Source: a virus | Taxonomy: Duplodnaviria > Caudoviricetes | DNA: 56,956 nucleotides | Reading direction: 5' to 3' (one strand) | IMG/VR virus record: IMGVR_UViG_3300022602_001935 | Location: 1 to 56,956 of that record | Shown: positions 14,090 through 51,161 of the stretch, piece by piece | How positions within the stretch are numbered: the stretch's first letter is position 1 | How the letters are laid out: each line of letters begins with the position of its first letter | Translations under genes and position numbers: made by a program | Notes under the pieces: generated by a model | Database searches by the model: none | What the model saw: only the letters and a program-made list of their open reading frames with translations | What the model was told of the DNA's origin: nothing

Positions 14090-16188
14090 TGAGTACCATA
14101 AGCAATTTACCTCCATATACGGCATCAAGCACAGCAACTTTGTTAGTACCGGTCGCCGATATATCTGTACAACCTGCTAAAACATATTCAGTTACATTTG
14201 CTGACATGGCAAGTTATGTTGCTAACTCTGTGTTATCCGGAGGTACAGGTGCAACTGGTCCTGTTGGTTATACAGGATCAACTGGTCCTGTTGGTGCTAC
14301 AGGTGCTACAGGACCGATCGGATTAACAGGTAGTGGAGGAACTGGTGCTACAGGTGCTACTGGTGCAACTGGCCCACAAGGTGCTACAGGTGAACAAGGT
14401 ATTCCTGGTACTGCCGCGGCACAAGGCGGAACTGGAGCAACTGGTGCTACAGGACAACAAGGTGCTACAGGAAGTGGTGCTACAGGGGCTAGTGGTGCTA
14501 CAGGGGCTACTGGTTTCCAAGGATTTCAAGGAACAACCGGTGCTACTGGTCCACAAGGTCCACAAGGTATAAGTAACGTTCCCGGTGCTACCGGTGCTAC
14601 CGGTCCACAAGGTGCTACAGGTTTGCCAGGTACAGCAACAAATTTTGGTGGCACAGGTGCTACTGGTGCTACAGGTGCTACAGGACCTTTAGGCTCAACA
14701 GGTGCAACTGGATTCGGACTGCCGGGGTCTACTGGTGCAACTGGAGGGCCCGGCGCTACTGGCGCAGGTGCAACTGGTGCAACTGGTGCTACCGGCATAC
14801 AAGGTAATCAAGGAAATGCTGGTGCTACCGGTGCTACAGGTGCTGGTGCAACTGGAGCACAAGGTATTCAGGGACCTGTAGGTAATCAAGGGTCAACAGG
14901 TAACCAAGGAAGTACAGGTGCAACTGGGCCACAAGGACCACAAGGAGTTAGTAATGTTCCGGGTGCAACTGGTTCTACCGGCTTAACTGGTGCTACCGGT
15001 GCTGGAGCCACAGGTGCAACAGGTATAGGCAGTACTGGTGCAACAGGATCTACCGGTGCTACTGGACCACAAGGACAACAAGGCAATCCTGGTGCAACTG
15101 GTGCTACTGGTAGTCAAGGTGCTACAGGCCCTACAGGTAGTGGTGCTACTGGTGCTACAGGTGCTGACGGTGCTACAGGTGCTACCGGTGCTACTGGTCC
15201 ACAAGGTGCTACTGGACCATTGGGTGCTACCGGACCGTTAGGACCAATCGGTGCTACAGGTTCGGGAGGAACAGGTGCTACAGGTGCTGACGGTGCTACA
15301 GGTGCTACCGGAATAGTCGGACCTGCCGGTGCTACAGGTGCTACTGGTCCACAGGGTATTTCAGGTGTTGCCGCTATGCAGGGCGGAACTGGTGCTACTG
15401 GGTTAACTGGTTCTACAGGACCAATTGGTGCTACAGGTGCGTTAGGTGTATCCGGTGGATATATATTCTATCAAACTATACCAGCAAGTGTTTGGTATAT
15501 TCCACACAACCTAGGATATCAATATGTTCAAGTTGAACCTGTTGATGATAGCAATAATAGTTTTGTTGGTCGATATGATTATCCTATCATCAACTTTGTA
15601 GATAGTGATAATCTAACTTTAACATTTACTAGAGATGTTGGCGGATACGCAAACGTAAGTTCAGGAGGCGGACAACAAGGACCGCAAGGAGCAACAGGTG
15701 CTACAGGAAACGATGGTAGCACTGGTGCTACTGGATTAACTGGTCCAAGAGGAGCAACTGGAATAGACGGTGCTACAGGATCAACTGGTCCTCAAGGTGC
15801 TACTGGTGTTGGAGTTGGTCCAATTTCGCAATCAGGCTATGATGTACAATACCCAAACATAACATTAGATAATATTCGTGTTGCTATTGATAATGCAGGA
15901 AATCCTACAGTAGCGGCAGTTAGTGGATCTATATCAGCATCATTCTCGGGACAATTTACCCAATGGAACGGTTCTAATTTTACAGTTAATTTAATTGGTA
16001 GTACCGCAACAAGTTTTACATCTTTGTTTGGTGTAGGAATTGGAGCAACATTTGGTTATCCAGGAGAAACTGTTGTTATAAATTTAAATGATGATACAGA
16101 TCAGCATCTTTATGAGGTTCTATGGGCCGCAGGTAATAGCGGGCCTGCTACAGGGTACGGGTTCATACAAATACAACGATTAGTATAA
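14089..16188 (+). CDS. collagen-like (Gly-X-Y) fibre protein
   Basis: Long GAT/GST/GPQ triplet arrays flanked by globular ends. Confidence 0.85.
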
Positions 16189-16208
16189 TTAATGGAATAA
16201 GAAATTAA

Positions 16209-19200
16209 ATGAGCGCAATAACAAACTTAACACCGCTAAACACCGTAACAGGTGGTATGCTCTTACCTATTGTTGATACTACAGTAGAACCTTATACCAC
16301 TAAACAGGTTAACATTGATAAAATAGGTCATTATGTTAATAACTCTTTATTGAGTACAATCATTCCTCCTGCTACAACAAGTACGCTTGGTGGTGTAATT
16401 GTCGGTCATGGATTAACTGTTACTACTAGTGGGGTATTAGTAGCAGTTAGTCAAGTTGTTACTACAACATGGGCAACATTGGCGCATGTTAACGATGATC
16501 AAGGTCCTTTACAGGTAAACATAGGAAAAGCCGCAGGAGTAACAGGACAAGGGACATATTCTATAGCAATTGGTGTAGGTGCAGGTAACATTAATCAAGG
16601 TATTACACAAGGTGCTCCTTATGGTAATGCAATTGCTATTGGAACTTTAGCCGGTGAAATTAACCAAGGTAATTCATCTGTTGCCATAGGTAATAATGCC
16701 GGAACAAATAATCAAGCAGTTGATTCTATTGCTATTGGATGTTTTGCAGGTAATACTGGCCAAAATACAATGTCTGTATCAATTGGTGTTAGTGCAGGAC
16801 AGTTTAATCAAGGGCGAGGAGCAATAGCATTAGGTAACAATGCTGGGCAAGGAGGGCAGGGTGCTAACTCAATTGCTATCGGCGCAAATGCTGGTGTTAC
16901 AGGTCAAGCCGCTAATTCTATTATATTAAATGCCACAGGAATTGTTCTTAACAATACATCAACATCAGGCCTATATGTAGCACCTATCAGATCAGTTGCA
17001 AGTGGTAATTTGATTTTATATTATAATTCAATTACTAACGAAGTAAGTTATGGAATAATTGATACGTCATTAATAGGTGCTACTGGTGCGGCTGGTGTAG
17101 ACGGAACAAATGGTGCCACAGGTGCTACTGGACTGTATATTACAACAGGTACCATTGTTAACGGTACAGACTTAGAACTAGTATTCAATAATGGTAATGT
17201 AGCAAATGTCGGGCGTGTTATTGGTCCGATTGGTCCACAAGGTGACCCAGGTACAACAGGTGCTACTGGTCTTACTGGAGGACCTGGCTCAACAGGTGCA
17301 ACTGGACCTCAAGGACCATCCGGTGTAGCAACTTATCAAGGCGGCACTGGTCCTGCTGGTGCTACCGGAGCAACTGGACCAAAAGGTGATCCAGGAGGAC
17401 CTATAGGAAGTACAGGTGCTACTGGTCCACAAGGTATACCAGGACGTGGGTACCAAGGTGCCAAAGGAGACATGGGAACAACAGGTGCAACTGGTGCTAC
17501 TGGAGCAACAGGACTACAAGGTGGTACTGGTTCTACCGGATATCAGGGATCTACAGGTGCTACAGGATATCAGGGATCTACAGGTGCTACTGGACAGGCA
17601 GGTACAAATGGTAGTACAGGTCCAATTGGATTAACTGGTGCTACTGGGTATCCCGGTAGTACAGGTGCTACAGGGCAGGCAGGTATAGATGGTAGTACAG
17701 GTCCAATTGGATTGACCGGTGCTACAGGTAATAATGGAGCGACTGGTGCTACTGGATATCAGGGAACAACAGGTGCTACTGGACCACAAGGTATAAATTT
17801 AACCCTGATAGGAAGCACAGATACTGTTACAACTTCTACCGTAGGATACGGTTCTGCTGGTCAAGGTTGGTACAGCACTATAACAAATCATGTTTATTTT
17901 TGGAACACACTAACTCAATCGTGGAATGACATTGGTGCTATCATGGGGCCACAAGGCGGACCTGGATCTCAAGGTGCTACAGGTAATGACGGCGGCACTG
18001 GTGCTACAGGTTATCAGGGATCTACAGGTGCTACTGGATATCAAGGAACGACAGGTGCTACAGGTAATGACGGAGCAACTGGTGCTACAGGTTATCAGGG
18101 ATCTACAGGTGCTACTGGATATCAAGGAACGACAGGTGCTACAGGTAATGACGGAGCAATTGGATCAACTGGTCTAACAGGTGCGACAGGTGTAGTCGGT
18201 CCGAGAGGTGCTACAGGTAGTGGATCAACAGGTGCTACTGGATTAGGTGCTACTGGTGCTACTGGTGCGCCAGGACCGATTGGTGCTACTGGTAGTGCAG
18301 GTCCACAAGGTACTCCGGGAACAAATGGATCGGCAGGTCCACAAGGTGATTTAGGTGCTACTGGTGCTACTGGTCCGCAAGGTGATCCTGGAGGTGCTAC
18401 TGGTAATGATGGTGCTACAGGTGCTACAGGTTTAACAGGTTCTCCCGGAATTAATGGTGCCACTGGTGCCACTGGTCCTGCGGGATCAGGTGCAACAGGT
18501 GCAACAGGTGTTTGGGGTAGTTCGGGAGCAACAGGTGCTACAGGACAAACAGGTGCTACAGGAGCACAAGGGTTATCCGGTGTCAAAGGAACTACAGGAG
18601 CACAAGGGTCAACCGGTGCTACTGGACAAACAGGCGCCACCGGTGTAAGTAATGTTCCTGGCGCAACAGGTGCAACTGGACCGGCAGGGGCCACTGGCTT
18701 GCCAGGTGCATTTGCCGCAATGGGATCAACAGGTGCAACTGGTGTTCCGGGTGCTACTGGTCAAACAGGACCTGCTGGTGCTACAGGTGCTGGTGCAACT
18801 GGAGCAAGTGGTTATATAGGTCGAGATGGTGCAACAGGAGCGACTGGTGCAGGTGCAACAGGTGCAACTGGATTTGGTGCTACTGGTGCTACTGGTGCTA
18901 CCGGTCCACAAGGTGCTACCGGTAGTGGATCAACAGGTGCTACAGGAATAGGTGCTAGCGGTGCAACAGGTGCCACTGGACCACAAGGTGCTACTGGTAG
19001 TGGATCAACAGGTGCAACTGGTCCTATCGGTTCACAAGGTAGTACAGGTGCTACTGGACAACAGGGAGCAACTGGTGCAGGTGCTACAGGCGCACAAGGT
19101 CCTATAGGATTTACAGGTGCGTCAGGATCAATCGGATTTACAGGAGGAACTGGTGCTACTGGTGCAGGTGCTACGGGTGCTACGGGTGCCCAAGGTGCTA

Positions 19201-19736
19201 CTGGACCACAAGGAGCAACTGGTATAGGATTAGTAGGAGCATCTGGGTCAACGGGTGCTACCGGACCAAGCGGGTCAACAGGAGCGACAGGACCTCAGGG
19301 GCCTGCTGGTACTGCCGCGGCACAAGGCGGAACCGGAGCAACTGGTCCTGCTGGCGCAACTGGACCACAGGGTGCAACAGGTAGTGGTGCAACAGGCGCC
19401 ACTGGTGCTCAAGGTGCAACAGGATCTACAGGTACTGTTACTATTGTAGGAAATACATATACTGTACAAACATTAGTAGTAAACACACTAACTGTAGGAA
19501 CACTAGGTTTAGGTTCAATTGTTTCAGGAAACGATCTAGCACTTAAAGCCGCAGGACAAATTACAACCAATGCACCATTTGTTTTAAACACAGCAACAAC
19601 AAGTACTCTGGCAACTATTGCAGGTATTACACAACGTGGTGCTATGGTATTTGCATTAGATGCTGTAGGTGTTGCTCAACCTGTTTATTATGATGGCACA
19701 TATTGGTGGACGATGAATAGAACAAGGATCTATTAA
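16209..19736 (+). CDS. collagen-like fibre protein with YadA-head-like repeats
   Basis: About 14-aa SIAIG/AIAIG repeats in the N-terminal region, then extensive Gly-X-Y arrays; N-terminus similar to the 14089 protein. Confidence 0.85.
17973..18159 (+). repeat. 81-nt tandem repeat (about 2.3 copies) within collagen gene
   Basis: Units start at 17973, 18054 and 18135 (ggtgctacaggtaatgacgg...), nearly identical. Confidence 0.85.
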
Positions 19737-21310
19737 TGCGTAAGTATTTTGTAGTTGCTAGTCATCCTGATCATAAACAAAATCTACATGACGAGTTAGT
19801 AGCACCAACAGGAAGTGCTACTGTTCCCTATAGGTCAGTTGATATTATCGATCCAATGCCCGGTAGCGAATACAATGGTACTTTTTACCTAACAGATCAA
19901 GAAGCACAAACTCTTAAAGAAGATCCAAGGGTTAGAGATGTGTGCCTTAGTGCAGAAGAACAAGGATTGATAAAAACTGTAACAAAAATTCGTCCAGGAC
20001 TATTTGACAAGGCAGTTACTGCAACAACTTCATCACACAACTGGGGATTAATTAGATGCATTAATACTAATAGTGATGTATCTTTTAATCAAGGTTACGG
20101 CAGTACTACTACAAATTACACTTATAATTTAGACGGTACAGGCGTAGATATTATTTTTATTGATACAGGAATTGAACCTGGTCATCCAGAATTTGCTGTT
20201 AACCCAGACGGTACAGGCGGATCAAGAGTAGTTAATATTGACTGGACTCAATTTGGTTATATTACCTCAGCGCCAACTGGCGGATTTATGGGAGATTGGG
20301 ACGGGCATGGTTCTAATGTTGCCAGTATTGCCGCAGGTAACACACAAGGTTGGGCACCCGGAGCGGCTATCTATAGTTTTAGATGTATCGGAAGTGATAA
20401 CGGAAGCGTTACTAGTATCTATAGTGGGGCTACATTGGGAGCAGTTGATAACTTACAAGCATGGCAAACTATTAGAGCATTTCATTTATCTAAATCTGTT
20501 ACATCAACAGGATATCGCAGACCTACAATAGTTTCATGTAGTTATGGATATCTTCAAGCATACACAAGATTAACTAATATCAACTATAGAGGAACAAATC
20601 ATCCTGTTACAACTACAACTGTTGCCTATGGTACTATTGGGGTTCCGGAAGGTGGTGCAGGATATTGTAATCAATTTTACTCTCCCGAAGATGCAGATAT
20701 ACAAAGTTGTATAAATGCCGGAGTTATAGTTGTCGGTGCTGCCGGGAATTATAGTCATAAAATAGATGTACCAGGTGGATTAGACTACAATAACTATTGG
20801 ACAGAATATACAGGGTTTAATTATTACTACCATAGAGGTGGAACTCCTGGATCTACACCCGGAGTAATATGCGTGGGATGTATAGGAGCATATACAGTAG
20901 ATACAGCAGGTACAGGAGAAGAACACAAACGACAATTTAGTGAAACTGGACCAAGAGTTAATATTTGGTCGCCTGGGGATTATATTATGGGTGCGTATGC
21001 TAATAAAGTATATGCTGGATCTGCTGTAGTTGATTACAGAGCATCGGGTTATTATCTAAATAAAATATCAGGTACCAGTCAAGCAACTCCTCAAGTAGCG
21101 GGAGTATTGGCATTAGTCTGTGAAGTTAGACCTTGGTTTACAGCCACAAATGCTCTTAACTTTATACAGGCTACTGCTTCTACATGGAATCCAAATCAAA
21201 ATTATTATTCAGCGGCTAGTGATTATAGCAATTTAGGATTATTACAAGGTGCTCCTTCTAAAGTATTATACAATCCTTTTAATTCTGCGACACCCCTAAA
21301 GATCGACTAA
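19736..21310 (+). CDS. subtilisin-like S8 serine protease
   Basis: Catalytic motifs IDTG, HGSNVASIAAG, AAGN, SGTSQATPQVAG; N-terminal prodomain-like segment. Confidence 0.9.
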   Translation: MRKYFVVASHPDHKQNLHDELVAPTGSATVPYRSVDIIDPMPGSEYNGTFYLTDQEAQTLKEDPRVRDVCLSAEEQGLIKTVTKIRPGLFDKAVTATTSSHNWGLIRCINTNSDVSFNQGYGSTTTNYTYNLDGTGVDIIFIDTGIEPGHPEFAVNPDGTGGSRVVNIDWTQFGYITSAPTGGFMGDWDGHGSNVASIAAGNTQGWAPGAAIYSFRCIGSDNGSVTSIYSGATLGAVDNLQAWQTIRAFHLSKSVTSTGYRRPTIVSCSYGYLQAYTRLTNINYRGTNHPVTTTTVAYGTIGVPEGGAGYCNQFYSPEDADIQSCINAGVIVVGAAGNYSHKIDVPGGLDYNNYWTEYTGFNYYYHRGGTPGSTPGVICVGCIGAYTVDTAGTGEEHKRQFSETGPRVNIWSPGDYIMGAYANKVYAGSAVVDYRASGYYLNKISGTSQATPQVAGVLALVCEVRPWFTATNALNFIQATASTWNPNQNYYSAASDYSNLGLLQGAPSKVLYNPFNSATPLKID

Positions 21311-28038: not shown

Positions 28039-28958
28039 AAGAACTATGGGTAGAAAAATATCGTCCTAAGACCACAGACGAATATGTGTTTAGAGATGAA
28101 GCACAACGCAGACAGATTAAAGGCTGGATTGCTGATGGTTCAATTCCGCACTTGTTGTTAAGTGGTAGCCCAGGCATCGGTAAAACTACCCTTGCTAAGG
28201 TTCTGCTCAACGAACTTGAAATTCCAGAGTTTGATATTTTAGAAATCAACGCATCACGTGAACGTGGTATTGATGAAGTTAAGAAACGTATCACTAACTT
28301 TATCAGCATGATTCCGTTTGGCCCGTTTAAGTGTGTGTTATTAGACGAAGCAGATCGACTAACGCCGGAAGCACAGGACGCACTTAAAGGTGTGATGGAA
28401 GAATTTTCCAGTACCAGCAGATTTATATTAACCTGTAATACACCTAATCGTATTGTACCAGCACTACACAGTCGTTGCCAACAGATGCACTTTGCGTCTA
28501 TTGACCAAACTGAATTTACTGCTCGTGCCGCAACTATTCTTGTTGAAGAAAATGTAGAGTTTGATTTAGACACACTGGATTTGTATGTGCGTAGTGTATA
28601 TCCAGATTTGCGTAAGTGTATTAATCTGCTACAACAAAACAACGTTGGTAGTAAGTTAATCAATCCTAAAGCAGAAGACAGCGGTGTCAGCGACTATAAG
28701 ATTAAAATGGTTGAATTGTTTAAGGCAAGAAAATATCGCGAAGCACGTAAATTGTTATGTGCCAAAGCCACAGCAGATGAAATGGGCGAGATCCTTCGTT
28801 GGTGTTATGACAACATCGAATTGTTTGGCGAGGACGAGGATACTATGGATCAGGCTGTGATTGTTATTAAACAAGGTTTGTGTGATCATGTAATCTGTGC
28901 TGATCCAGAAATCAATTTAAGTGCTGTGCTTATTAAATTAGCGAGGTTAAATCAATGA
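28035..28958 (+). CDS. clamp loader AAA+ subunit (T4 gp44/RFC-like)
   Basis: WVEKYRP, Walker A GSPGIGKT, INAS, Walker B LLDEAD, SRC motif. Confidence 0.92.
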   Translation: MKELWVEKYRPKTTDEYVFRDEAQRRQIKGWIADGSIPHLLLSGSPGIGKTTLAKVLLNELEIPEFDILEINASRERGIDEVKKRITNFISMIPFGPFKCVLLDEADRLTPEAQDALKGVMEEFSSTSRFILTCNTPNRIVPALHSRCQQMHFASIDQTEFTARAATILVEENVEFDLDTLDLYVRSVYPDLRKCINLLQQNNVGSKLINPKAEDSGVSDYKIKMVELFKARKYREARKLLCAKATADEMGEILRWCYDNIELFGEDEDTMDQAVIVIKQGLCDHVICADPEINLSAVLIKLARLNQ

Positions 28959-40494: not shown

Positions 40495-40869
40495 ATGCTA
40501 TTAAACGAATTTTTTGGTTCTTATGACGCCGCTGGCGCTAAGAAGGAAGATGAAAAACATAAAAAGAAATATGAAGAAGCCGAGTTGGCTGACGCGATTT
40601 ATGAATTCATTCTTCACAACGACAAACTCCACAAAGAGCAGTTTATTCCTATTGCTCAGAAAATACACCGCAACCCCACAAAAGAACACGATAACGAAAT
40701 TTGGATGCCACTGGTGACCAAAGGCTGTATGGAATTCTACCATCACAACAAGATGATGGATGATCCACTGAAGATGTTTCACAAAAAATTCCGCAGTGAT
40801 CTTTGCGAACTATTTGCCACGGAGTGTAATAAAGACATTCTCAAAGGCGAATTCGAGTTAGGAGATTAA
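40495..40869 (+). CDS. hypothetical protein (MLLNEFF N-terminus)
   Basis: After TAAATA (40459-40464) and GAGG SD. Confidence 0.75.
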   Translation: MLLNEFFGSYDAAGAKKEDEKHKKKYEEAELADAIYEFILHNDKLHKEQFIPIAQKIHRNPTKEHDNEIWMPLVTKGCMEFYHHNKMMDDPLKMFHKKFRSDLCELFATECNKDILKGEFELGD

Positions 40870-40870
40870 T

Positions 40871-41857
40871 GTGTTTCTAAATGAACTATTCAACAACACA
40901 AAAACTCCTCTAAATGAAGGTGGTAATGTATTTGCAGGTAAGACTACTGCTATCAAGCGTGAAGATATCCCTTCAACTCTAAATGCTTACTTTGCTGAAC
41001 TGAAAAGTATGTTCCCAAAGAAGGCCGCAATCTTTAACGAAAAGAATTTTATGCCACTTGGCTCTGTAGGTAAGAAAGCAGTCAGTGGAGATATTGACTT
41101 AGGTGTTAGTGCTACAGACATCCTTGATAAAACAATGAGTGATGCGAGCATTGCGGCTTGGGGAGTTGATCCTAAAGCAGTAGCCGCAGAGTTTGAAGCA
41201 TTAAAGAAACGTGCTCGCACAAGTACTCCAGAACAACTAAGAATGAAAGCATTCTTAAAACATCTAACACTATACATCAATAGCCATGCTCCAAGCCTAT
41301 ACTGTGATGAAAAGAAAGTCACAGACGGCAACATCTTTGGATTGTTTCCACAAATAGACGCACAAGGACAACATGTAGGTAGCGGTGTTCAGATTGATTG
41401 GATGATCGGTGATCTAAATTGGTTAAAGTTCAGTTATTACTCCGCGGCTTACCCAGAAGGCAGTAATGTTAAAGGACTTCACAGAACACAATTGATGTTA
41501 AGTGCTTTCCAGGTAGCAGGTCTAAGTTTTAATCACGTTGGCGGTGTTAAAGACAAAGAGACTGGAGAAGTTATTGCTCGCGATCCAGACCAAGCATTAG
41601 GTGTGTTAGGTCAAAGACTAGGATTTAAGATCACACAAGCAGATGCAGAAGACTATTATAAACTTCACAAACTATTCCAAACAAAGATGAGTCCAGAGAA
41701 TTACAACTCGCTAATCAACATTTACTTTAAGATCTTGGACAGCACTCGTGCTGACATTCCAGATGATCTACAAGGCGAATGGCGTAAGCGTCAGGGCAGT
41801 CTTGGACTAACAGGTAAGTTCCTACCTGACAATTCAGCATTAAAGGCGAGACAATAA
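40871..41857 (+). CDS. Pol-beta superfamily nucleotidyltransferase-like protein
   Basis: LGSVGKKAVSGDIDLGV (hGS-x-DxD) and third Asp in VQIDWM; GTG start after AGGAG. Confidence 0.7.
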   Translation: MFLNELFNNTKTPLNEGGNVFAGKTTAIKREDIPSTLNAYFAELKSMFPKKAAIFNEKNFMPLGSVGKKAVSGDIDLGVSATDILDKTMSDASIAAWGVDPKAVAAEFEALKKRARTSTPEQLRMKAFLKHLTLYINSHAPSLYCDEKKVTDGNIFGLFPQIDAQGQHVGSGVQIDWMIGDLNWLKFSYYSAAYPEGSNVKGLHRTQLMLSAFQVAGLSFNHVGGVKDKETGEVIARDPDQALGVLGQRLGFKITQADAEDYYKLHKLFQTKMSPENYNSLINIYFKILDSTRADIPDDLQGEWRKRQGSLGLTGKFLPDNSALKARQ

Positions 41858-44646
41858 TGAGTGGCGTAGCAGGTGCCGATCGTGTAAAAAGTCGTCAAGA
41901 CTTTCAACAGTTCTTAAAATCTTACAAAGGTCTGATCAGTCAGTTCCCTGGATTTGTAAGTTTAAATCCCAGCGGTAGTTATAACAGCAATCTTGAGAAG
42001 AATGACTTTGGTGATATAGATCTTATTGTTCATATCCAAAGCGATCAAGACAAAGCCACAGTTAAAAAACAACTACAGGCATTCTTTATGAAACAGCCTG
42101 AAACAGTTATTGTTCCTTTTAGTTCTGCCAAACACGCGGGCAAGCGTAGTTACAACGCAGGTGAATTGGTCAGTGTTCGTTATCACGATGATCACTTAGG
42201 TTATTCAGCACAGATTGACAACATTGTGGCATTAGATCAAAAGGAAGCAGGATTCAAACAGCAGTTCTTAGATTGGCCCGCTGAAAAGCAAGGCCTAATA
42301 TTAGGTTTAATTAAAATTGCCGCAATTGAAACTGATCCAAGAATTCTGTTTAAGAAATTAGGCATACCTGATCCAGGCCCTCTTGAAGAAGGTCAGGAAT
42401 ATGAATTCAATCTTAGTTCAGTAGAACTTCAGTTAAGAAGAATTACCTACAAGCCAGGTACTTACGAACAATTGGGCAGAGAAGTCCTTTGGAATAGTAG
42501 AGACTTTGAAGACATACAAAAGTTATTGTATCAATATAACTTAAACGCAGACTTTGACCAACTATTAGCACAGGCCAAACAGGTAATAAAGAATCCACGT
42601 AGTAATGCAAGGATGCAGGGTGTGTTCTCAAGTATGATCACAGTCAAGAGCGGAGAAGTAGGTACAGCCAAAGGTGCTGGCAAAGAAGCCGCATTGGCCA
42701 AGATACAGAATACATTTAGAGAATCACGTAGCCTGCTACATGCTCTAACAGAATCTGTAAATCCAGGAACTATTGTATTTGCGTTTGGAAGACTACAGCC
42801 TCCTACAATTGGACACGAAATACTTGTCAATACAGTTAAGCAGGTAGCAAAACAAAATGGTTGTCCTTACATTATCTATATCAGCAAAACAGTTGGCAAG
42901 AGTCCGGCAGATAAATTAAAAAATCCTCTCACTGTAGATCAAAAGATGATGTACTTAGGAAAGATGTTCCCAGGTACACACTTTGCTCCGGCTACTGATC
43001 AAGTTCGTACTCCTATTGAAGCCGCTAAATTCCTAAATCAAAAGTATCAAAATCTTATTCTTGTAGCAGGCGGTAGTCGTGCTGAAGAATTTGATAAACT
43101 GTTAAATGACTACAATGGTAGAGACTATAATTTTGATAGCATTCGTGTTGTTAAGATCGATAGAGATCCCGATGCCGATGATGCTTCGGGTATGAGCGGA
43201 ACTAAAATGCGTCATGCGGCCATGGCTGATGACTTTGAAGCATTTAGATCAGGACTGCCAGGAGCATTAGATGATGCTACAGCACAACAACTTATGCAGG
43301 ATGTGAAAGCCGGTATGACTCCAACACCTAAAATTAAAAAAACAAAAGAAGCAATGTTGCCCACAAGTGCGTTTGCTGGATCTAAGAAAAACAAATTAGG
43401 ACCAGCAGGACAGTGGAAGAACACAGGACCAAGTAAGAATCGTCCAGCAAGAGCAGGCGACTTAGTAGGTGGTGCCGCCGAAAGTATTGAGTTAGATGAA
43501 TCTAACGATATTAAAGGTACATTAAGAACAATTGCCAACGATATTGGCGAACCTGTCACTAATGTATATGAAACACTCAAGCATATGGCCAAACGTTTTT
43601 ATGATAGTCACGGAGACCTGAAAGGGTTCGGCATGGTGGCAGGCGGAGTAGGCGGGCGCTGGTTCCAAACATTTTATTTCAACAGACTACAGAATGAATT
43701 GTTTGACCTAAGTAAACAGAATACAAAAATTACAGTACCTTTACAACAGTTTTTACGAGGTGTAGAAGTCAAAGGCAAAATTGAAAATGCCAAAGGTTTT
43801 AGTGCTATTAGTAAAGAACTTCCAGATATACTTGCTGATATAGGTACTAAAATAGGATATGCTCCTTTGGCTAACAATGCTCGCCGTTGGATTCACCATA
43901 GAGAAGAATACGAACAGTACCTAAGTGATTTAGAATTAAGTGATTATGAAGATGACGATGATTTAGATTCTGTACCCAAAACTCCTAAAGATCCAGAGAT
44001 GGGCAAACAGCGTAGTCAAGCAGAAGATATTGTCAATGATGTTTTAAGAAAACTACCGAGTAGAATTGCTGGCGATATTCGCAATGCTATTGCTCGTGCA
44101 CCAAACAAACTACAGGCCTTACAACAAGAACTACAAAAACGTGGTGTTAAGGTTCCTATGGAAAACATGGCTGGTGTAGGAGATATGGATAATCCAGAAT
44201 TTAATGCTGTGTATGAAGCCAAAGCCACAAAGACAAGACTTGATCCAAGTTGCTGGAAAGGCTATCATAAAGCAGGTACCAAAGTCAAAGGTGGTACAAG
44301 AGTCAATAACTGTGTGCCCAATGAAGCCGCTAATCCTGCGCAACAGGCCGCTATTGCTATTGCTAAAAAGAAAAAGCGAGGCACAACAGAAGCAGACGAT
44401 ATAGAACATGGATACCCTATGATGGCTACAGAACACAAGAAGGGTGTTAAGGCTGTTAAATATACTAAGAAACCTAAAGGTATTGAACCACCGAAACCCA
44501 GAAATTTTGTTGCTAAGAACGCAGTAATGGGCGGTGCTGGTGCTCATAAGAATAAGAAAAAAGAAGCAAAGCATAAACATGTAGAGATCGGTGAGGCTTG
44601 GGAACGAGAAATGGCTCGTGCTATTAGACTTTTGGAAAATAAATAG
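41857..44646 (+). CDS. multidomain protein: Pol-beta NTase + HxGH-type (cytidylyl/NMN-adenylyltransferase-like) domain + low-complexity modules
   Basis: SGSYNSNLEKNDFGDIDLIV and AQIDNI; FAFGRLQPPTIGH...MSGTKMR; CWKGY...VNNCVP motif near the C-terminus. Confidence 0.7.
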   Translation: MSGVAGADRVKSRQDFQQFLKSYKGLISQFPGFVSLNPSGSYNSNLEKNDFGDIDLIVHIQSDQDKATVKKQLQAFFMKQPETVIVPFSSAKHAGKRSYNAGELVSVRYHDDHLGYSAQIDNIVALDQKEAGFKQQFLDWPAEKQGLILGLIKIAAIETDPRILFKKLGIPDPGPLEEGQEYEFNLSSVELQLRRITYKPGTYEQLGREVLWNSRDFEDIQKLLYQYNLNADFDQLLAQAKQVIKNPRSNARMQGVFSSMITVKSGEVGTAKGAGKEAALAKIQNTFRESRSLLHALTESVNPGTIVFAFGRLQPPTIGHEILVNTVKQVAKQNGCPYIIYISKTVGKSPADKLKNPLTVDQKMMYLGKMFPGTHFAPATDQVRTPIEAAKFLNQKYQNLILVAGGSRAEEFDKLLNDYNGRDYNFDSIRVVKIDRDPDADDASGMSGTKMRHAAMADDFEAFRSGLPGALDDATAQQLMQDVKAGMTPTPKIKKTKEAMLPTSAFAGSKKNKLGPAGQWKNTGPSKNRPARAGDLVGGAAESIELDESNDIKGTLRTIANDIGEPVTNVYETLKHMAKRFYDSHGDLKGFGMVAGGVGGRWFQTFYFNRLQNELFDLSKQNTKITVPLQQFLRGVEVKGKIENAKGFSAISKELPDILADIGTKIGYAPLANNARRWIHHREEYEQYLSDLELSDYEDDDDLDSVPKTPKDPEMGKQRSQAEDIVNDVLRKLPSRIAGDIRNAIARAPNKLQALQQELQKRGVKVPMENMAGVGDMDNPEFNAVYEAKATKTRLDPSCWKGYHKAGTKVKGGTRVNNCVPNEAANPAQQAAIAIAKKKKRGTTEADDIEHGYPMMATEHKKGVKAVKYTKKPKGIEPPKPRNFVAKNAVMGGAGAHKNKKKEAKHKHVEIGEAWEREMARAIRLLENK

Positions 44647-44650
44647 TATT

Positions 44651-46474
44651 ATGAAAATAGATCAATTATTCGAATCAGGTGACGATTTAGCATCTCAGTT
44701 TGCTCAGATGGCTAAAGATAAAGGCATGAATGTTAGAGTTCGTGGAACCCCAGATCAAGAACGACAACGTACACAAGATATGTTGGCGCAACGTCGTTCT
44801 GATCAAGAAAAACAAAGTCAATTAGCAGGTGAAAAAGATTTTGCTAATCTTGACCAACTTGAAGCCGAATATGCAAAAATGAAAGACGAATATCAATCAT
44901 TAGGCGGATCTAATTGGCAGTATGCTGATCGCGAACAGAATCTATCAGCCAGCGAACGCAAGGCCCGCAGTATGGAAGACGGACTAAGAGCACTATGGTC
45001 GAGAATTCAACGTGCTAAGAAGTATAGTGGCGGTGTGGCGGAAGCACATGATCCTAAATTTACAGGATTCATGAATAAAGCATTAGGCACACGCCAAGAT
45101 GCAAAACCGCAGTCATACGATCCAAATACCACAATGACTTTTGATAATATGCCAGGCTACAAACATGCGTTTAAGTTTGGTATGAATATTATTAAAAAGA
45201 TGGACCCAGATACTAAGGAACACTTTGCAAATGCAAGTGACAATACATTGTTAAGTTACATGATCGATATTGCCGAGAAAAAAGGTTTTATTCCAAAGTA
45301 TTTTGTAGAAGAAGATTTAGACGAAGTTACCCAATGGTTTGATGAACAATTTCACGATCCTGAAATGGAAGGTTGGAGTTGGGCTGATTTATTAAGAGAT
45401 ATGATTGGTCAGGAACCTAATGCCGCAAATAGAGCGGCAGCTCAATCACATAAACAAATGATGGCTAAATCACAAGCGGCTAAAGATAAACCTGAATCAA
45501 TAGATCCAACTAAATTAAAAGTAGTAGATCGTACAGATACTGGAAAATCAGAGATATGGTATCCGCACGGTGACTTTTTTGGTACATCATCTTGGGCCGT
45601 AGTACAAGACGGATTCAAAGATAAAGCTCATGCTGAACATGCCCTAAAACAACTTAAGACTAATCCTAATATTGTCAACATCATAAAAAAGGCTATTGCA
45701 GATGAAGGTTTGGCGGAGGGCGATGACCGAACCGTTGCCAATATCAAAAACTACGAGAGAGAATTGGCCAAATATAAAAAATTCAATGCCAATGGAGCAC
45801 ATGATGTCAAAATTAAAAATCTTGAAAAAATCATAGCCCACTTGAAATCAAAACAAGGTGTGGCGGAAGGCGATGCTCTTGCTGATTTTTTAGCAAAGGG
45901 CGGAAAAATTCATCAATTACCTTACAAAAAACCACGCAAGGCTGATAAAACAGATTATGGTAGCAAACATATTGGCGGATCTGGTGACAAAATGAAAAGT
46001 AGTCGAACTGGAAAAGCCGCCAAGACACAAGGCACTAAAGTAGTTGGCGTAGGAGAATCTGCTCCTAAGGGATGGGAAGGTACAGTTAAAGCAATGAAGA
46101 AGCATAAAGAAATTGATAATCCTTACGCTTTAACTAACTGGATGAAAAACAAAGGCTACAAGAGCCACAAAAAAGAAAGCATGGAAAATCATCCTGACGA
46201 GAAAGAAGATAAAGCACTTATTCGTCAGATGGTTAAAAAACAAGCATTGAAACGCGAAAACATGATGGCAAAAGAACAGCATGAAGATCATGAAATATCA
46301 ATGGCCACAAGCGAATTGAAAAATGTTTATATCAATGCTAAAAAATTGTTTGATATTATTAAAAAACGCAGTGAACAAGAAGGGTTAGATGCTTGGCAAC
46401 AGAGCAAAATTACCAAAGCCTCGGATTACTTAAATAGTGTATTAACGGCTATTAGAGGCGAACCACGTAGATAA
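44651..46474 (+). CDS. modular protein with GVAE-delimited segments (putative head-packaged polyprotein)
   Basis: ATG 44651 follows TAAATA (44640-44645); MKIDQLFES; GVAE/GLAE sites at 45032, 45707 and 45857. Confidence 0.75.
   Translation: MKIDQLFESGDDLASQFAQMAKDKGMNVRVRGTPDQERQRTQDMLAQRRSDQEKQSQLAGEKDFANLDQLEAEYAKMKDEYQSLGGSNWQYADREQNLSASERKARSMEDGLRALWSRIQRAKKYSGGVAEAHDPKFTGFMNKALGTRQDAKPQSYDPNTTMTFDNMPGYKHAFKFGMNIIKKMDPDTKEHFANASDNTLLSYMIDIAEKKGFIPKYFVEEDLDEVTQWFDEQFHDPEMEGWSWADLLRDMIGQEPNAANRAAAQSHKQMMAKSQAAKDKPESIDPTKLKVVDRTDTGKSEIWYPHGDFFGTSSWAVVQDGFKDKAHAEHALKQLKTNPNIVNIIKKAIADEGLAEGDDRTVANIKNYERELAKYKKFNANGAHDVKIKNLEKIIAHLKSKQGVAEGDALADFLAKGGKIHQLPYKKPRKADKTDYGSKHIGGSGDKMKSSRTGKAAKTQGTKVVGVGESAPKGWEGTVKAMKKHKEIDNPYALTNWMKNKGYKSHKKESMENHPDEKEDKALIRQMVKKQALKRENMMAKEQHEDHEISMATSELKNVYINAKKLFDIIKKRSEQEGLDAWQQSKITKASDYLNSVLTAIRGEPRR
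45711..45871 (+). repeat. 161-nt exact duplication, copy 1
   Basis: Identical to 47019-47179 by direct comparison. Confidence 0.95.
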
Positions 46475-46475
46475 T

Positions 46476-46850
46476 ATGAGAGCAAAAGAATTCATAGTCG
46501 AAACTAAACCAGAAGGCAAGATGCACCCACATCATGTTAATGTTCAGCAGGGTGTATCGAGGTCACGCGATGTAGGTGGGTATGATCGTGTGTATCATAT
46601 GAATCGACTAATGATGGCTATGGGTATGGCTGACGGTAAAAGTGAAAAACCTGTAGAGATGGATTCTGCATCATGGACAGAAAAATACAATACACATCAT
46701 CCATATACAGAAGAAGAACACAACATGATCAAGTCTGCGTTGAACACAATTCCCACAGACAGTAAAGAAATTACTCCTTGGTCAAAGAGTATTGAACCAG
46801 ATGATACTCATAAAGTAAGCCCTGTAGCAAATTGGATGAAGAAGAAATGA
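46476..46850 (+). CDS. hypothetical protein (MRAKEFIVE N-terminus)
   Basis: 124-aa ORF in the same operon. Confidence 0.75.
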   Translation: MRAKEFIVETKPEGKMHPHHVNVQQGVSRSRDVGGYDRVYHMNRLMMAMGMADGKSEKPVEMDSASWTEKYNTHHPYTEEEHNMIKSALNTIPTDSKEITPWSKSIEPDDTHKVSPVANWMKKK

Positions 46851-47785
46851 GAATAAATGATCTACTTGTTGAAACCAAACGCAAAAGTTCTGCTGTAAAA
46901 CTACAAAGTGCTTGGGAAAAGCAACAGGCTAAATCTACTGCCAGTCGCAAGCGTGGCGAAGAATACATGGCCAAGATCAAACAAGATGTTGCTGACAAAT
47001 CAAAGAAAGAGCAAGGTGTGGCGGAGGGCGATGACCGAACCGTTGCCAATATCAAAAACTACGAGAGAGAATTGGCCAAATATAAAAAATTCAATGCCAA
47101 TGGAGCACATGATGTCAAAATTAAAAATCTTGAAAAAATCATAGCCCACTTGAAATCAAAACAAGGTGTGGCGGAAGGCTTGAGTGATACACAAAAGAAG
47201 ATTGAAGATACTATACTCAAACTTGAACAACGATTGAAGTTTGCTAAAACACCAGAACAATGGGATAACATAAAAAATCGCATTGAACGATTACAAGCAG
47301 GGTTGAAGCGTAGTAAGCAAGGTGTGGCGGAAGATTGGCAAAAGGTCAATAGACATGACAAGACCGACGGCCTAAGCAAAAAGGCTGTTAGTGCTTATCG
47401 TAGAGAACATCCTGGTTCAAAATTAAAAACTGCTGTCACAACCAAACCTTCAAAATTAAAGAAAGGTTCTAAGTCTGCTAAACGTAGGGCAAGTTTTTGT
47501 GCTCGTATGAGTGGAATGAAAAAACACCGCACTGGTGCTAAAACAAAACGTGATCCAGATAGCAATATTAATAAAGCACTTCGCCGTTGGCATTGTGAAA
47601 GCATAGAAGAGATGCAGGAACTAATTATGATTGGAGAACAATATATCTCCAAATTAAAAGAAGATGGATCAGCAGGCGGAACAAGTTCCGGGTCTATCGC
47701 CAGTGTATCAATGCCCTTAGGCGGCAAAAAGAAAAAGAAAGGTGGCGGAGTAAATTTACTCGGCGGACCTGTATTCAAACGCTAA
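46847..47785 (+). CDS. modular protein with three QGVAE sites (putative head-packaged polyprotein)
   Basis: ATG 46847 (MRINDLLVE); 50-aa and 52-aa modules, then a basic domain with RRASFCARM...LRRWHC. Confidence 0.75.
   Translation: MRINDLLVETKRKSSAVKLQSAWEKQQAKSTASRKRGEEYMAKIKQDVADKSKKEQGVAEGDDRTVANIKNYERELAKYKKFNANGAHDVKIKNLEKIIAHLKSKQGVAEGLSDTQKKIEDTILKLEQRLKFAKTPEQWDNIKNRIERLQAGLKRSKQGVAEDWQKVNRHDKTDGLSKKAVSAYRREHPGSKLKTAVTTKPSKLKKGSKSAKRRASFCARMSGMKKHRTGAKTKRDPDSNINKALRRWHCESIEEMQELIMIGEQYISKLKEDGSAGGTSSGSIASVSMPLGGKKKKKGGGVNLLGGPVFKR
47019..47179 (+). repeat. 161-nt exact duplication, copy 2
   Basis: Identical to 45711-45871. Confidence 0.95.
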
Positions 47786-47847: not shown

Positions 47848-48117
47848 ATGAGCAAAGTTTTCGGCACCCCTGAACAAACAAAAATCAAACAAATTATTTC
47901 CGAGGGCATGACCGTAATGCAGGAAATCCAAGATCTTACAGAAGGTCTTAATGAAACAATCAAAGCAGTAGCAGAAGAACTCGAAGTCAAACCAAGTGTT
48001 ATTCGTAAAGCAATTCGTATTGCACAAAAAGATCAATGGGATCAAGTATTCCGCGAGTTTGATGATCTTGAAACCATTGTTGATATCAGTGGCCATGCCA
48101 ATCGTAGGGAAGGCTAA
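47848..48117 (+). CDS. T4 DsbA/GapR-like dsDNA-binding protein
   Basis: AGGAG SD; helical pattern EIQDLTEGLNETIKAVAEELEVKPSVIRKAIRI. Confidence 0.6.
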   Translation: MSKVFGTPEQTKIKQIISEGMTVMQEIQDLTEGLNETIKAVAEELEVKPSVIRKAIRIAQKDQWDQVFREFDDLETIVDISGHANRREG

Positions 48118-48491: not shown

Positions 48492-51161
48492 ATGAGTTAT
48501 GTCGATGCCATTTGGGATCGCGAGAAGGACATTGTCCACGTCGTTGAAAGAGATCCTAAAAAAGGTAGAGTATATACGGACTATCCAGCCCGCTATGTAT
48601 TTTACTATCCAGATGCTAAAGGTAAGTATCGTTCAATTTTTAATGAACCACTTAACCGAGTCACAGCAAAAAATTACAAAGAATTTGTAAAAGAACAAAA
48701 AACATTTTCCAGTACTCGATTGTACGAAAATGATATTAATCCTATCTTCCGTTGTTTAGAAGAAAACTATCTTGGCAAAGATGCTCCAAAACTAAATGTA
48801 GCATTTTTCGATATTGAGGTGGATTTTGATCCAGAGCGCGGCTACGCATCACCTGATGATCCGTTTATGCCAATTACTGCGATTGCGGTTCACCTACAAT
48901 GGATGGACACAATGGTCTGCCTTGCTCTTCCTCCTAAAACACTAACAATGGAGCAGGCTAAAGAACAGGTTAAAGAATTTCCTAACACGCATCTGTTTGA
49001 TAACGAAGGCGATCTGTTAGAAACATTCTTACAACTTATTCAAGATGCAGATGTACTAAGTGGTTGGAATTCAGAAGGCTTTGATATTCCTTATACAGTT
49101 AATCGTGTTATCAAAGTTCTCAGCAAAGAAGACACAAGACGTTTTTGTTTGTTTGACAAGTTTCCTAAGAAACGTGAATACGAAAAATATGGCAAAACAG
49201 CAGAAACTTATGACCTAATTGGTCGCGTACATATGGACAGTTTAGAATTGTATCGCAAGTATACATATGAAGAACGACACAGTTATAGGCTTGATGCTAT
49301 TGCTGAACATGAATTAGGTGAAAAGAAAACACAATACGAAGGCACACTTGATCAACTGTACAACAATGACTTTAAAAAGTTTATCGAATATAACAGACAA
49401 GACTGTGCGCTACTTGACAAATTAGATAAGAAATTAAAATTTATCGATCTTGCTAATACAGTGGCTCATGAGAATACTGTGCTATTGGCAACCACAATGG
49501 GTGCAGTGGCTGTAACTGAACAGGCGATTATCAATGAAGCACATCATAGAGGTATGATTGTACCAAGTCGTCCTAAGCGTGATGAAGATATTAGTAATCA
49601 GGCCGCAGGTGCGTATGTTGCGTATCCTAAAAAAGGCTTACATGACTATATAGGTTCAATGGATATTAACTCACTGTATCCTTCTGTGATTCGCGCACTT
49701 AACATGGGCCCAGAAACTATTATTGGTCAATTGCGACAAGATTATACCAAAGCAGAAATTGAAGCCAAGATTGCCAAAGGAGATTCGTTTGCCGCGGCAT
49801 GGGAGGGAAAGTTTGGTAGTAATGAATACGAACTTGTAATGAGCAAAGATCGTGCTAAAGAAATTATCATCGATTGGGAGTCTGGCAGTACAGATATTCT
49901 ATCAGGCGCACAGATTTATGAATTGATATTTGAAAGTAATCAACCATGGATGCTGAGTGCTAATGGTACAATTTTTACACACGAAGTAGAAGGCGTGATT
50001 CCCGGACTACTAAAACGTTGGTATGCTGAACGTAAAGAGATGCAGGCCAAACTTAAAGAATCAATTAAGGCGGAGAACAAAATTGAAGAAGAATACTGGG
50101 ACAAACGACAACTTGTCAAAAAAATTAATCTTAATAGCCTTTATGGTGCTATTCTCAACGTTGGGTGCCGTTTTTTTGATAATCGTATCGGGCAGTCTAC
50201 CACCCTTACAGGCCGAGGAATTGCTAAACATATGGCCGCTAAAATTAACGAAGTAATTACAGGGGAATATAATCATATAGGCAAATCAATTATCTATGGT
50301 GATACAGACTCTGCATACTTCTCGGCATATAGCACACTAAGGCGTGAAATTGAAAAGAAAGAAATCCCTTGGGACAAAGACAATGTTATTACCTTGTATG
50401 ATACAATTGCCTCGGAAGTAAATTCAACATTTCCACAATATATGTTAGAAGCACACCACTGTCCCAAGAGTCGTGGCGAAGTGATTAAAGCAGGTCGTGA
50501 GATTGTGGCTATCAAGGGTCTGTTCATTACTAAGAAACGTTATGCTGTATTGTATTATGACAAAGAAGGCAAGCGTCAAGACGTAGATGGTAAACCTGGT
50601 AAGATCAAGGCCATGGGCTTAGATTTGAAACGATCTGATACTCCAGAATTTATGCAGAAGTTCTTAGAAGAAGTTCTTACTAAAGTTCTAAATGGCAGTC
50701 AAGAAGCAGAGATTCTCGATATGATATCAGAATTTAGAACTGAATTCAAGGCTCGCCCTGGTTGGGAAAAAGGTAGCCCTAAACGTGCTAACAACATCAC
50801 TGACTATCAGGATAAAGAAAAGAAATCAGGCAAAGCAAACATGCCCGGCCATGTACGTGCGTCTATTAATTGGAATACACTAAAACGCATGAATGGCGAC
50901 AAATACAGTCAGCAGATTGTTGATGGCATGAAAGTTATTGTCTGTAAGGTAAAAGATAATCCACTAGGATTTACAAGTGTTGCTTATCCTGTAGATGAAC
51001 TTAGACTACCTAAATGGTTTCAGGATCTGCCATTTAATCATGCAGAGATGGAAGCAACCATCATCAACAACAAATTAGAAAATCTAATCGGCGTTCTGGA
51101 GTGGGACTTAGAATCCACTACGCAGAACAATACATTCAACCAATTGTTCAGTTTTGAATAA
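48492..51161 (+). CDS. polB: family B DNA polymerase (T4 gp43-like)
   Basis: Exonuclease motifs FDIE, GWNSEGFD, YNRQD; polymerase motifs DINSLYPS, KINLNSLYG, YGDTDS, KKRY. Confidence 0.97.
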   Translation: MSYVDAIWDREKDIVHVVERDPKKGRVYTDYPARYVFYYPDAKGKYRSIFNEPLNRVTAKNYKEFVKEQKTFSSTRLYENDINPIFRCLEENYLGKDAPKLNVAFFDIEVDFDPERGYASPDDPFMPITAIAVHLQWMDTMVCLALPPKTLTMEQAKEQVKEFPNTHLFDNEGDLLETFLQLIQDADVLSGWNSEGFDIPYTVNRVIKVLSKEDTRRFCLFDKFPKKREYEKYGKTAETYDLIGRVHMDSLELYRKYTYEERHSYRLDAIAEHELGEKKTQYEGTLDQLYNNDFKKFIEYNRQDCALLDKLDKKLKFIDLANTVAHENTVLLATTMGAVAVTEQAIINEAHHRGMIVPSRPKRDEDISNQAAGAYVAYPKKGLHDYIGSMDINSLYPSVIRALNMGPETIIGQLRQDYTKAEIEAKIAKGDSFAAAWEGKFGSNEYELVMSKDRAKEIIIDWESGSTDILSGAQIYELIFESNQPWMLSANGTIFTHEVEGVIPGLLKRWYAERKEMQAKLKESIKAENKIEEEYWDKRQLVKKINLNSLYGAILNVGCRFFDNRIGQSTTLTGRGIAKHMAAKINEVITGEYNHIGKSIIYGDTDSAYFSAYSTLRREIEKKEIPWDKDNVITLYDTIASEVNSTFPQYMLEAHHCPKSRGEVIKAGREIVAIKGLFITKKRYAVLYYDKEGKRQDVDGKPGKIKAMGLDLKRSDTPEFMQKFLEEVLTKVLNGSQEAEILDMISEFRTEFKARPGWEKGSPKRANNITDYQDKEKKSGKANMPGHVRASINWNTLKRMNGDKYSQQIVDGMKVIVCKVKDNPLGFTSVAYPVDELRLPKWFQDLPFNHAEMEATIINNKLENLIGVLEWDLESTTQNNTFNQLFSFE

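Follow-up and report, generated by a model that had tools for sequence, protein, structure and literature searches.

How does one protein module come to lie, unchanged, in two different genes of the same phage, with unrelated sequence on either side? The question is raised by the virus record IMGVR_UViG_3300022602_001935 (Duplodnaviria; Caudoviricetes), which is linear, is rated 15% complete by CheckV, and was analyzed over its entire 56,956 nt (hereafter the window). A 50-codon module occurs in gene A (44651–46474) and again in gene B (46847–47785), in both cases between copies of a short repeat. The initial annotation, made from the nucleotides of the window, had proposed a very recent cassette copy event, with the repeat as a functional mobility boundary. 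The repeat proves to be an in-frame interdomain linker, with the peptide (K)QGVAEG and the codons GGT GTG GCG GAA GGC, and the same cassette is found in other viral contigs. We place at roughly 78% the probability that this linker acts as an in-frame homology patch, at which the phage's own recombination exchanges, inserts, deletes, and duplicates domain cassettes.

A duplicated module with linker-bounded edges

The two copies (45711–45871 and 47019–47179) are 100% identical over 161 nt, within a longer gap-free match of 172 nt at 98% identity (45700–45871 vs. 47008–47179). At the left edge, copy A reads GGT TTG GCG GAG GGC and copy B reads GGT GTG GCG GAG GGC, and identity runs from the second base of the Leu/Val codon; at the right edge both read AAA CAA GGT GTG GCG GAA GGC, and divergence is complete directly after GGC. 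The flanks of the two copies are unrelated, and a separate open reading frame (ORF) of 124 aa (46476–46850) lies between the host genes. The alignment agrees to the base with the initial annotation, which had described an identity of 161 nt that starts inside one repeat and ends just after the next, with unrelated flanks and an unrelated gene between the copies. At one codon, both window copies carry CAC (His), and the other five aligned copies carry AAC or TAC. This private variant, common to the window copies only, makes them each other's closest relatives, and it fits the proposal that the copying was recent.

In a single-sequence AlphaFold2 model of gene B (mean predicted local distance difference test [pLDDT] 66.9), helices span residues 3–81, 89–131, and 136–169. 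The module is modeled as a helix-loop-helix with the loop FNANGAH, and its 52-aa neighbor as another helix-loop-helix; the earlier description of both as short helical hairpins is borne out at the moderate confidence of such a model. The pLDDT is 75–92 in the modules vs. 55–69 at the three linkers (58, 69, and 55 for the 10-residue blocks 51–60, 101–110, and 161–170), and the model carries helices through the linkers, which is a tendency of single-sequence models.

The linker is conserved as DNA

The linker core (GGTGTGGCGGARG) has eight matches in the window at ≤2 mismatches, where 0.85 are expected and the maximum in 100 shuffles is 4. Six of the eight are real (five exact, one with a single mismatch). 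Each of these reads in frame on the + strand, and none lies outside 45032–47333; the repeat is confined to genes A and B, and is not window-wide. The remaining matches, at 28389 and 35249 (2 mismatches each), look like chance.

Conservation of the linker lies in the DNA, beyond the peptide. The 25 long window ORFs contain 818 Val codons, 8.2% of them GTG, and 1074 Ala codons, 7.2% of them GCG; at the window linker sites, GTG and GCG account for 5 of 5 Val and 6 of 6 Ala (chance 4e-6 and 1e-7, respectively). When viral contigs were scanned with the exact 17-mer CAAGGTGTGGCGGAAGG, it was present in at least 128 stretches, often 2–4 times per locus at spacings of ~140–690 nt; among the matches listed, 153 of 165 17-mers are read as QGVAEG in an open frame, and ORFs with at least two sites contain 117 of the 165. 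The same codons prevail at the 104 sites in the listed viral loci that do not match the 17-mer (GGT at 96/104, GTG at 80/93 Val, GCG at 83/104, and GAA at 93/104), against a background of 24% GTG and 12% GCG in the ORFs that contain them. They also prevail in loci found independently of the DNA motif: 12 of the 79 loci found via the DUF6321 protein carry linker sites, 21 in all, with GGT at 17/21, GTG at 14/16 Val, GCG at 15/21, and GAA at 19/21. Binomial tails for these codon counts lie between 2e-7 and 2e-55. Overall, the core is very uniform, with 182 of 185–223 at each position.

The six window sites form no stem-loop on folding (z −0.32 to 0.95), the linker contains no inverted repeat, and comparison with Rfam gave a chance-level match only (E 0.82). 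The 17-mer also has at least 120 single matches in bacterial genomes (mean G+C content 0.62), of which 5 of the 120 listed have a second site, and three of these five second-site ORFs shown look like spurious frames; we take the bacterial matches to be chance.

The same cassette in other protein contexts

The 50-aa module recurs at 96–98% identity in six other viral contigs, and at 93–98% identity in nine protein clusters of a large protein collection. With the window included, it has at least 11 different left neighbors and at least 13 different right neighbors; in one cluster (P0005) the next module is the 52-aa hairpin that also comes after it in gene B, and the hairpin occurs in another context in locus L032. 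A DNA alignment of seven copies from six contexts shows near-identity only from AAGGT in the left linker to GAAGG in the right linker, and unrelated sequence outside. The end-points in relatives coincide with the repeat, as the initial annotation had supposed: the seven DNA copies end linker-to-linker, and the module is still linker-flanked in the host genes of the nine protein clusters, the right edge in cluster P0011 excepted. The cassette is far more conserved than its carrier genomes, being 96–98% identical while the family B DNA polymerase (PolB) is 87% (L132 contig) and only 63% (L136 contig) identical to that of the window.

The coincidence of linkers and exchange boundaries extends beyond this module. 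An all-vs.-all megablast of 216 loci (≥88% identity, ≥150 nt) gave 145 internal homology-block ends in linker-holding loci, at 133 distinct positions, of which 93 (64%; 84 of the 133 distinct) lie ≤15 nt from a linker centre; 200 draws of random positions from these loci averaged 7.5 and never exceeded 16.

To catalogue the modules, 141 non-redundant linker-bearing ORFs were cut after each G[VLIM]AE and segments of ≥25 aa were kept, which yielded 418 segments in 355 clusters. The median length among internal segments is 74.5 aa; the 160 internal modules mostly measure 34–465 aa, with two shorter ones of 4 and 18 aa. Among the 48 clusters with at least two members, 41 have at least two different neighbor clusters on one side, and 12 on both, by a count that scores neighbors diverged below 40% identity as different. 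A Pfam scan of 60 long ORFs left 42 without a family; the families in the others were DUF6321 (11), GP88 (4), GH19 with ParB_N (1), GNAT (1), and DUF6934 (1).

Comparison with the nearest relative

In contig G009 (locus L144), PolB is 99% identical to that of the window, and nucleotide identity over window positions 25211–51951 is 92–95%. Colinearity within this span is broken six times, four of them in the 5.9 kb of multi-module genes. There is no copy of the focal 50-codon module in G009. All of the features below are on the + strand.

One break (45044/45856) has a linker site at both ends. Synteny stops at 45044, in site 1 of gene A (GGTGTGGCGGAAG; peptide GVAE-A; 45032–45044; exact match), and resumes at 45856, next to site 3 at the right end of copy A (45857–45869; exact match). 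The window segment consists of a 225-codon cassette (AHDPKF...ADEGLAE; 45044–45718), site 2 at the left end of copy A (GGTTTGGCGGAGG; peptide GLAE-G; 45707–45719; 1 mismatch), and copy A itself (GDDRTVANIK...KSKQGVAE; 45719–45868). Gene A of G009 reads ...AKKYGG-GLAEG-DALADF..., and lacks both the 225-aa cassette and the module; this layout suggests an exchange between sites 1 and 3 in G009, or the reverse exchange in the window. The 225-codon cassette has a second member in a different context (module cluster 24) and no Pfam or PHROG family; ESM Atlas hits with scores ≤0.80 and template modeling (TM) values ≤0.34 were unusable.

A second break (47003/47330) likewise has a linker site at both ends. 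Here synteny stops at 47003, ahead of site 4 at the left end of copy B (47015–47027; exact match), and resumes at 47330, in site 6 directly before the DUF6321 domain (47321–47333; peptide GVAE-D; exact match). Between these lie copy B (47027–47176), site 5 at its right end (47165–47177; exact match), and the 52-codon cassette that forms the second modeled hairpin (GLSDTQKKIED...RSKQGVAE; 47177–47332). In gene B of G009, a putative sigma-70 region-4-like cassette replaces the two hairpins; this cassette (L144 ~2140–2490; …LNDRQKQVLKLMYWEEMTLEEIAVELKVTRERVRQIWARAMRMLRQ) may bind DNA, as part of a protein that is possibly injected.

The other two breaks have different edges. That at 45975/46190 is marked by short "...ES" motifs and encloses a module with KGWEGTVKAMKKH...NPYALTNWMKNKGY that is present in the window only (45976–46189). 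That at 43484/43498 (AAES/EVAES) falls in the gene at 41857–44646, and corresponds to an extra 45-aa cassette in G009 (50364–50513), which is Lys-rich, with ...GGAAES at its left and ...KEVAES at its right; the KEVAES edge is a degenerate linker with other codons (GTA GCA).

Proposed recombination at the linker and alternative explanations

The agent of the exchanges would be ordinary homologous recombination by the phage's own system. With every linker in one codon phase, the unit "module plus one linker" is a multiple of three, so that any such unit can fit at any other linker with the frame intact. In the window, a 150-nt cassette now lies in two genes as the outcome of one such event, in a hypervariable locus that precedes PolB; recurrent copying and gene conversion would keep the linker nucleotides uniform. 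For T4-type phages, conserved motifs are described as mediating modular shuffling, and homology patches of <50 bp as sufficient (PMC2839356; PMC4122927). The idea that the repeat is a functional mobility boundary is supported by the end-points in relatives, with the correction that the repeat consists of in-frame linker codons, for which ordinary homologous recombination is the simplest user; no dedicated mobility enzyme was seen. Several points weigh against recombination at the linker. No recombinase or nuclease was found in the locus, no integrase was found there or in a PHROG scan of 36 window ORFs, and no recombination intermediate was seen. At 17–21 nt, the linker is short for efficient homologous recombination, and its codon uniformity could stem from recent common ancestry of the cassettes, with no advantage from the DNA motif as such. 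In P0011, the right edge of the module lies five codons before the expected linker, and of the four cassette differences that set G009 apart from the window within these genes, two (45975/46190 and 43484/43498) use non-linker boundaries.

The cassette edges that lack the DNA motif ("...ES", AAES/EVAES, and P0011) would also be accounted for if the linker mattered as a peptide only, flexible or cleavable, with random or illegitimate recombination and selection retaining interdomain junctions only; linkers typically contain the residues G, V, A, E, and Q, and the pLDDT dips at the linkers of gene B. A peptide-only role has, in our assessment, quite a low likelihood: rare codons are kept at nearly every site, homology ends within the motif itself to the base, 64% of break-points fall ≤15 nt from the motif, and the cyanophage relatives of the multi-module proteins do without such a linker. 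The uniformity of the core might instead reflect recognition by a dedicated enzyme, either an integron-like site-specific recombinase or a homing-type nuclease cutting at the linker. T4-type phages are rich in homing nucleases, and nuclease genes are described as marking boundaries of phage exchange (PMC10055350); an ORF directly after the major capsid gene of clade contig G003 (L141 9670–10440) encodes a putative HNH-type homing endonuclease. Such an enzyme is nevertheless very unlikely: neither the locus nor its surroundings contain a gene for a recombinase or nuclease, the motif shows neither inverted repeats nor a fold, and the left crossover of the window copy lies inside the motif and not at a fixed cut outside it.

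The presence of two copies in one contig could also be an assembly artefact, in which an exact repeat of 161–172 nt was wrongly resolved in a mixed phage population and the copies come from different strains. Public runs X1 and X2 do mix forms (a joint 45975>46190, without 45976–46189, has depths of 91 and 79 vs. 202 and 210), a contig from run X3 joins the site 1 flank of gene A directly to the module, which adds a further context, and assembly is interrupted at every linker, with many loose contig ends. We regard an artefact as improbable, because the unique segments fit a single linear order only in the arrangement of the window, the private variant is common to both copies, every junction exceeds the linker in length, and the module appears in a range of contexts across many independent assemblies; were the copies to belong to two strains, the copying of the cassette would still be real. 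The Logan contigs of public runs neither confirm nor refute linkage on one molecule; they end at linkers with many loose ends, as is expected if the linker is a hub of the assembly graph. Summed module depth in X1 and X2 is several times that of the flanks; joints with a 20-nt short side (45871>47154, 45871>47312, and 47181>47314) were dropped as linker-only matches. Finally, the two adjoining modules of gene B, both ~50-aa helical hairpins that end in KQGVAE, might suggest an ordinary tandem-repeat protein with diverged units that all descend from one ancestral repeat and have kept its end as the motif. The chance of this is close to nil when 418 segments fall into 355 unrelated clusters (including DUF6321, GP88, ParB_N, GNAT, and GH19), and identical modules occur in unrelated proteins of phages with PolB just 63% identical.

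The locus, its phage, and the clade

Gene A encodes a multi-module protein of 607 aa from the ATG at 44651 (the ORF is open from a GTG at 44591). Neither gene A nor the 124-aa gene between the copies has a Pfam or PHROG family. Gene B encodes 312 aa from the ATG at 46847 (isoelectric point 10.15), in the order leader, N-terminal helix, linker, copy B, linker, 52-aa hairpin, linker, DUF6321 (47354–47590; Pfam PF19846, E 5.7e-11), and basic tail. Its C-terminus (47690–47785) carries a recurrent motif, T(S/A)AGS(I/V)A(S/T)V..P.GG..(K/R)R, that is also seen at ORF N-termini in L131, L132, L016, L019, and L034, and that resembles the N-arm of the T4-type major capsid protein of the clade, just past the likely maturation site (in contig G002, KHLAE|NATAGATSAGNVATL...VIRR).

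Three upstream genes (40495–44646) belong to the same locus. The nearest (41857–44646, + strand) encodes a multi-module protein of 929 aa, with a cytidyltransferase part (phrog_3041) and small modules; the other two encode a 124-aa protein that starts MLLNEFFG and a 328-aa protein that starts (V)FLNELFN. The latter, like the N-terminus of the 929-aa protein, is a putative Pol-beta-type nucleotidyltransferase (GS...GDIDL). Between the locus and PolB lies a gene for an 89-aa protein (47848–48117) that matches a transcriptional-regulator PHROG (phrog_639, 4.5e-7), with a sub-threshold TnsD match (E 0.006).

The window further encodes tail-fibre proteins, PhoH, peptide deformylase, a Clp-like ATPase, a clamp loader, and a PolB with T4-type PHROG matches (48492–51161, + strand), which serves here as the clade marker. 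Two collagen-like tail-fibre genes (14089–16188 and 16209–19736, within 14001–20000) have a G+C content of 0.43–0.50 vs. ~0.39 elsewhere, and differ strongly from G009 (64–84% identity, in pieces). A PolB 57–83% identical to that of the window is present in 15 of the 25 other linker-bearing contigs examined, often within a few kb of the linker locus, and all five large linker-bearing contigs have one of 63–66% identity. In two contigs the PolB match is broken into two or three separate open frames (G010 5944–8606; G018 65117–69503). The linker-bearing contigs are fragments, 6–46% complete by CheckV at 25–164 kb, and together with the shared PolB this indicates one clade of jumbo phages, for which the CheckV estimate of genome length is roughly 350–400 kb. 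The phage of the window is a member of this uncultured freshwater jumbo-phage clade with T4-type replication and head genes: among the five large clade contigs, a T4-type portal is present in three and a T4-type prohead protease (PF03420) in two, and the capsid protein of G002 can be aligned to T4 gp23.

At least part of the window was present in 20 public runs from 17 studies, mostly labeled lake-water or freshwater metagenome, with two labeled just "metagenome". With the locus as query, megablast gave no match among 50,697 phage records, and a 33-nt linker query against cultured phage records gave only a 19/20-nt chance match in an Arthrobacter phage capsid gene. In tblastn searches with gene B, cyanophage and pelagiphage matches were confined to the DUF6321 part; the cyanophage relatives (P-TIM68 and S-B43) have multi-module proteins, but these lack GVAEG linkers. 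The T4 late-promoter motif (TATAAATA) had one match vs. 6.3 expected, and is uninformative on the timing of expression.

A possible prohead-protease layer

The linker may also have a role in the protein, for which we would give slightly less than even odds: the host proteins may be capsid-targeted internal polyproteins, in which the linker V-A-E|G is a T4-type prohead-protease site. The prohead protease would then free each module as a small, possibly injected, accessory protein, and the polyproteins would carry a leader like the T4 capsid-targeting sequence (CTS), M-R/K-x-x-E/D-F/L-I/L-x-E. The T4 CTS is MKTYQEFIAE (PMC8442874), and CTS-like leaders occur on gene A (MKIDQLFE), the 124-aa gene (MRAKEFIVE), and gene B (MRINDLLVE); more widely, they are present on 26 of 54 N-termini of linker-bearing ORFs vs. 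3 of 43 control ORFs (Fisher p 6e-6). The same modules start directly after the Glu of either a leader or a linker, as in MKITEFVTE|DWQK vs. GVAE|DWQK, and MKLSEIIIE|GWSEKYK vs. GVAEE|WSKKYK. Cleavage by T4 gp21 is described after Glu at ITE, LTE, and LIE (PMC5694885; PMC9026906), a pattern to which the linker V-A-E conforms. In addition, gene B is very basic (isoelectric point 10.15).

Other observations weigh against such a protease layer. The whole 6–7 residue motif is near-invariant, including the P2 Ala (182/193), which is more than a loose [LIV]-x-E site needs, and the extended motif does not occur in the head proteins of G002 and G003. The linker genes adjoin replication genes, and there are no head genes in the window, itself a fragment of ~15% completeness. 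No T4-type portal, capsid, or protease match was found in G001 (343 kb, CheckV 99%) or G004. With the G002 capsid and protease as queries there was no match in G000, G001, G004, or G005, although in G005 the T4 portal is at the contig end, such that missing capsid and protease matches there carry no meaning. The motif was absent from the cultured phage records searched.

Combining both roles, one 21-nt string would be recombination site and prohead-protease site at once for packed and injected proteins, a "domain integron" that we consider possible but doubtful. In such a system, hundreds of unrelated domain cassettes would hop in frame between genes and between genomes, the phage would carry a combinatorial and quickly re-assorted payload of injected effectors, and the rare-codon linker would persist as linker-keeping lineages and cassettes keep exchanging.

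Relation to known systems and implications

The linker system is an in-frame, domain-level form of the motif-mediated shuffling known from T4-type phages. Like the linker, the PeSLs of T4-type phages are described as short, conserved, repeated DNA motifs on either side of variable cassettes in hyperplastic parts of the genome (Arbiol et al., 2010, PMC2839356; Comeau et al., 2014, PMC4122927); close relatives likewise show insertion, deletion, or replacement exactly at the motifs, and homologous recombination by the phage system has been proposed for them. As described, PeSLs are intergenic, ~100 bp long, comprise a promoter and a stem-loop terminator, and move whole genes, whereas the linker is 17–21 nt long, lies inside genes in one frame, lacks a stem-loop, and moves protein domains. 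In gp38, a tail-fibre adhesin of T-even phages, the glycine-rich motifs are described as conserved coding motifs between hypervariable segments, with exchanges in or near the motifs, as here (PMC3157838, which cites Tetart et al., 1996, 1998); they form the structural core of one domain in one protein, whereas the linker joins unrelated domains in many proteins, and the same cassette moves between non-homologous genes.

The T4 internal proteins (IPI, IPII, IPIII, and Alt; PMC8442874, PMC3012670) are accessory proteins of high diversity, with nothing in common but a short N-terminal leader whose last residues are [IL]-x-E, as here, and their loci are reported as recombination hot spots (PMC2839356, citing Repoila et al., 1994). 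Unlike the linker-bearing proteins, which have up to about a dozen modules with a repeated internal site, they are single small proteins with one cleavage. Polyvalent proteins of phages and conjugative elements (Iyer et al., 2017, PMC5512222) are described as combining many unrelated domains in one phage polypeptide, as here, with delivery alongside the DNA and sometimes proteolytic processing predicted. Their characteristic conflict domains include MuF, ART, a zincin peptidase, and a ParB-like nuclease. In contrast to these, the modules here are small and mostly unknown, with no peptidase domain and with ParB_N and GNAT once each, and the window locus adjoins PolB, unlike the virion-gene neighborhood of polyvalent proteins; the main text of the polyvalent-protein paper mentions neither "linker" nor "shuffling". 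Integron gene cassettes also form an exchangeable array with one recombination site per cassette, but no integrase (in integrons, a tyrosine recombinase) or attC-like folded site was found here, and the cassettes are in-frame domains, not genes. Searches for the motif "GVAEG", for "DUF6321", and for conserved-linker domain shuffling in phages showed nothing relevant among the papers listed, supplements not covered.

Motif-mediated shuffling was known before for whole genes (PeSLs) and within one adhesin (gp38); new here is in-frame, domain-level shuffling across unrelated genes, in phages with polymerases ~60% identical. Given the uniformity of the tag, an exact 17-mer is enough to find the system in metagenomes, and hundreds of small domains of unknown function can be delimited cheaply. 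Rapid turnover makes these domains candidates for roles in host interaction or counter-defence. The system gives a testable mechanism for the mosaicism of phage proteins, as well as a natural design for recombination-ready polyproteins. If it is true that the linker is also a maturation-protease site, these would be double-stranded DNA phages that use a polyprotein strategy for injected proteins.

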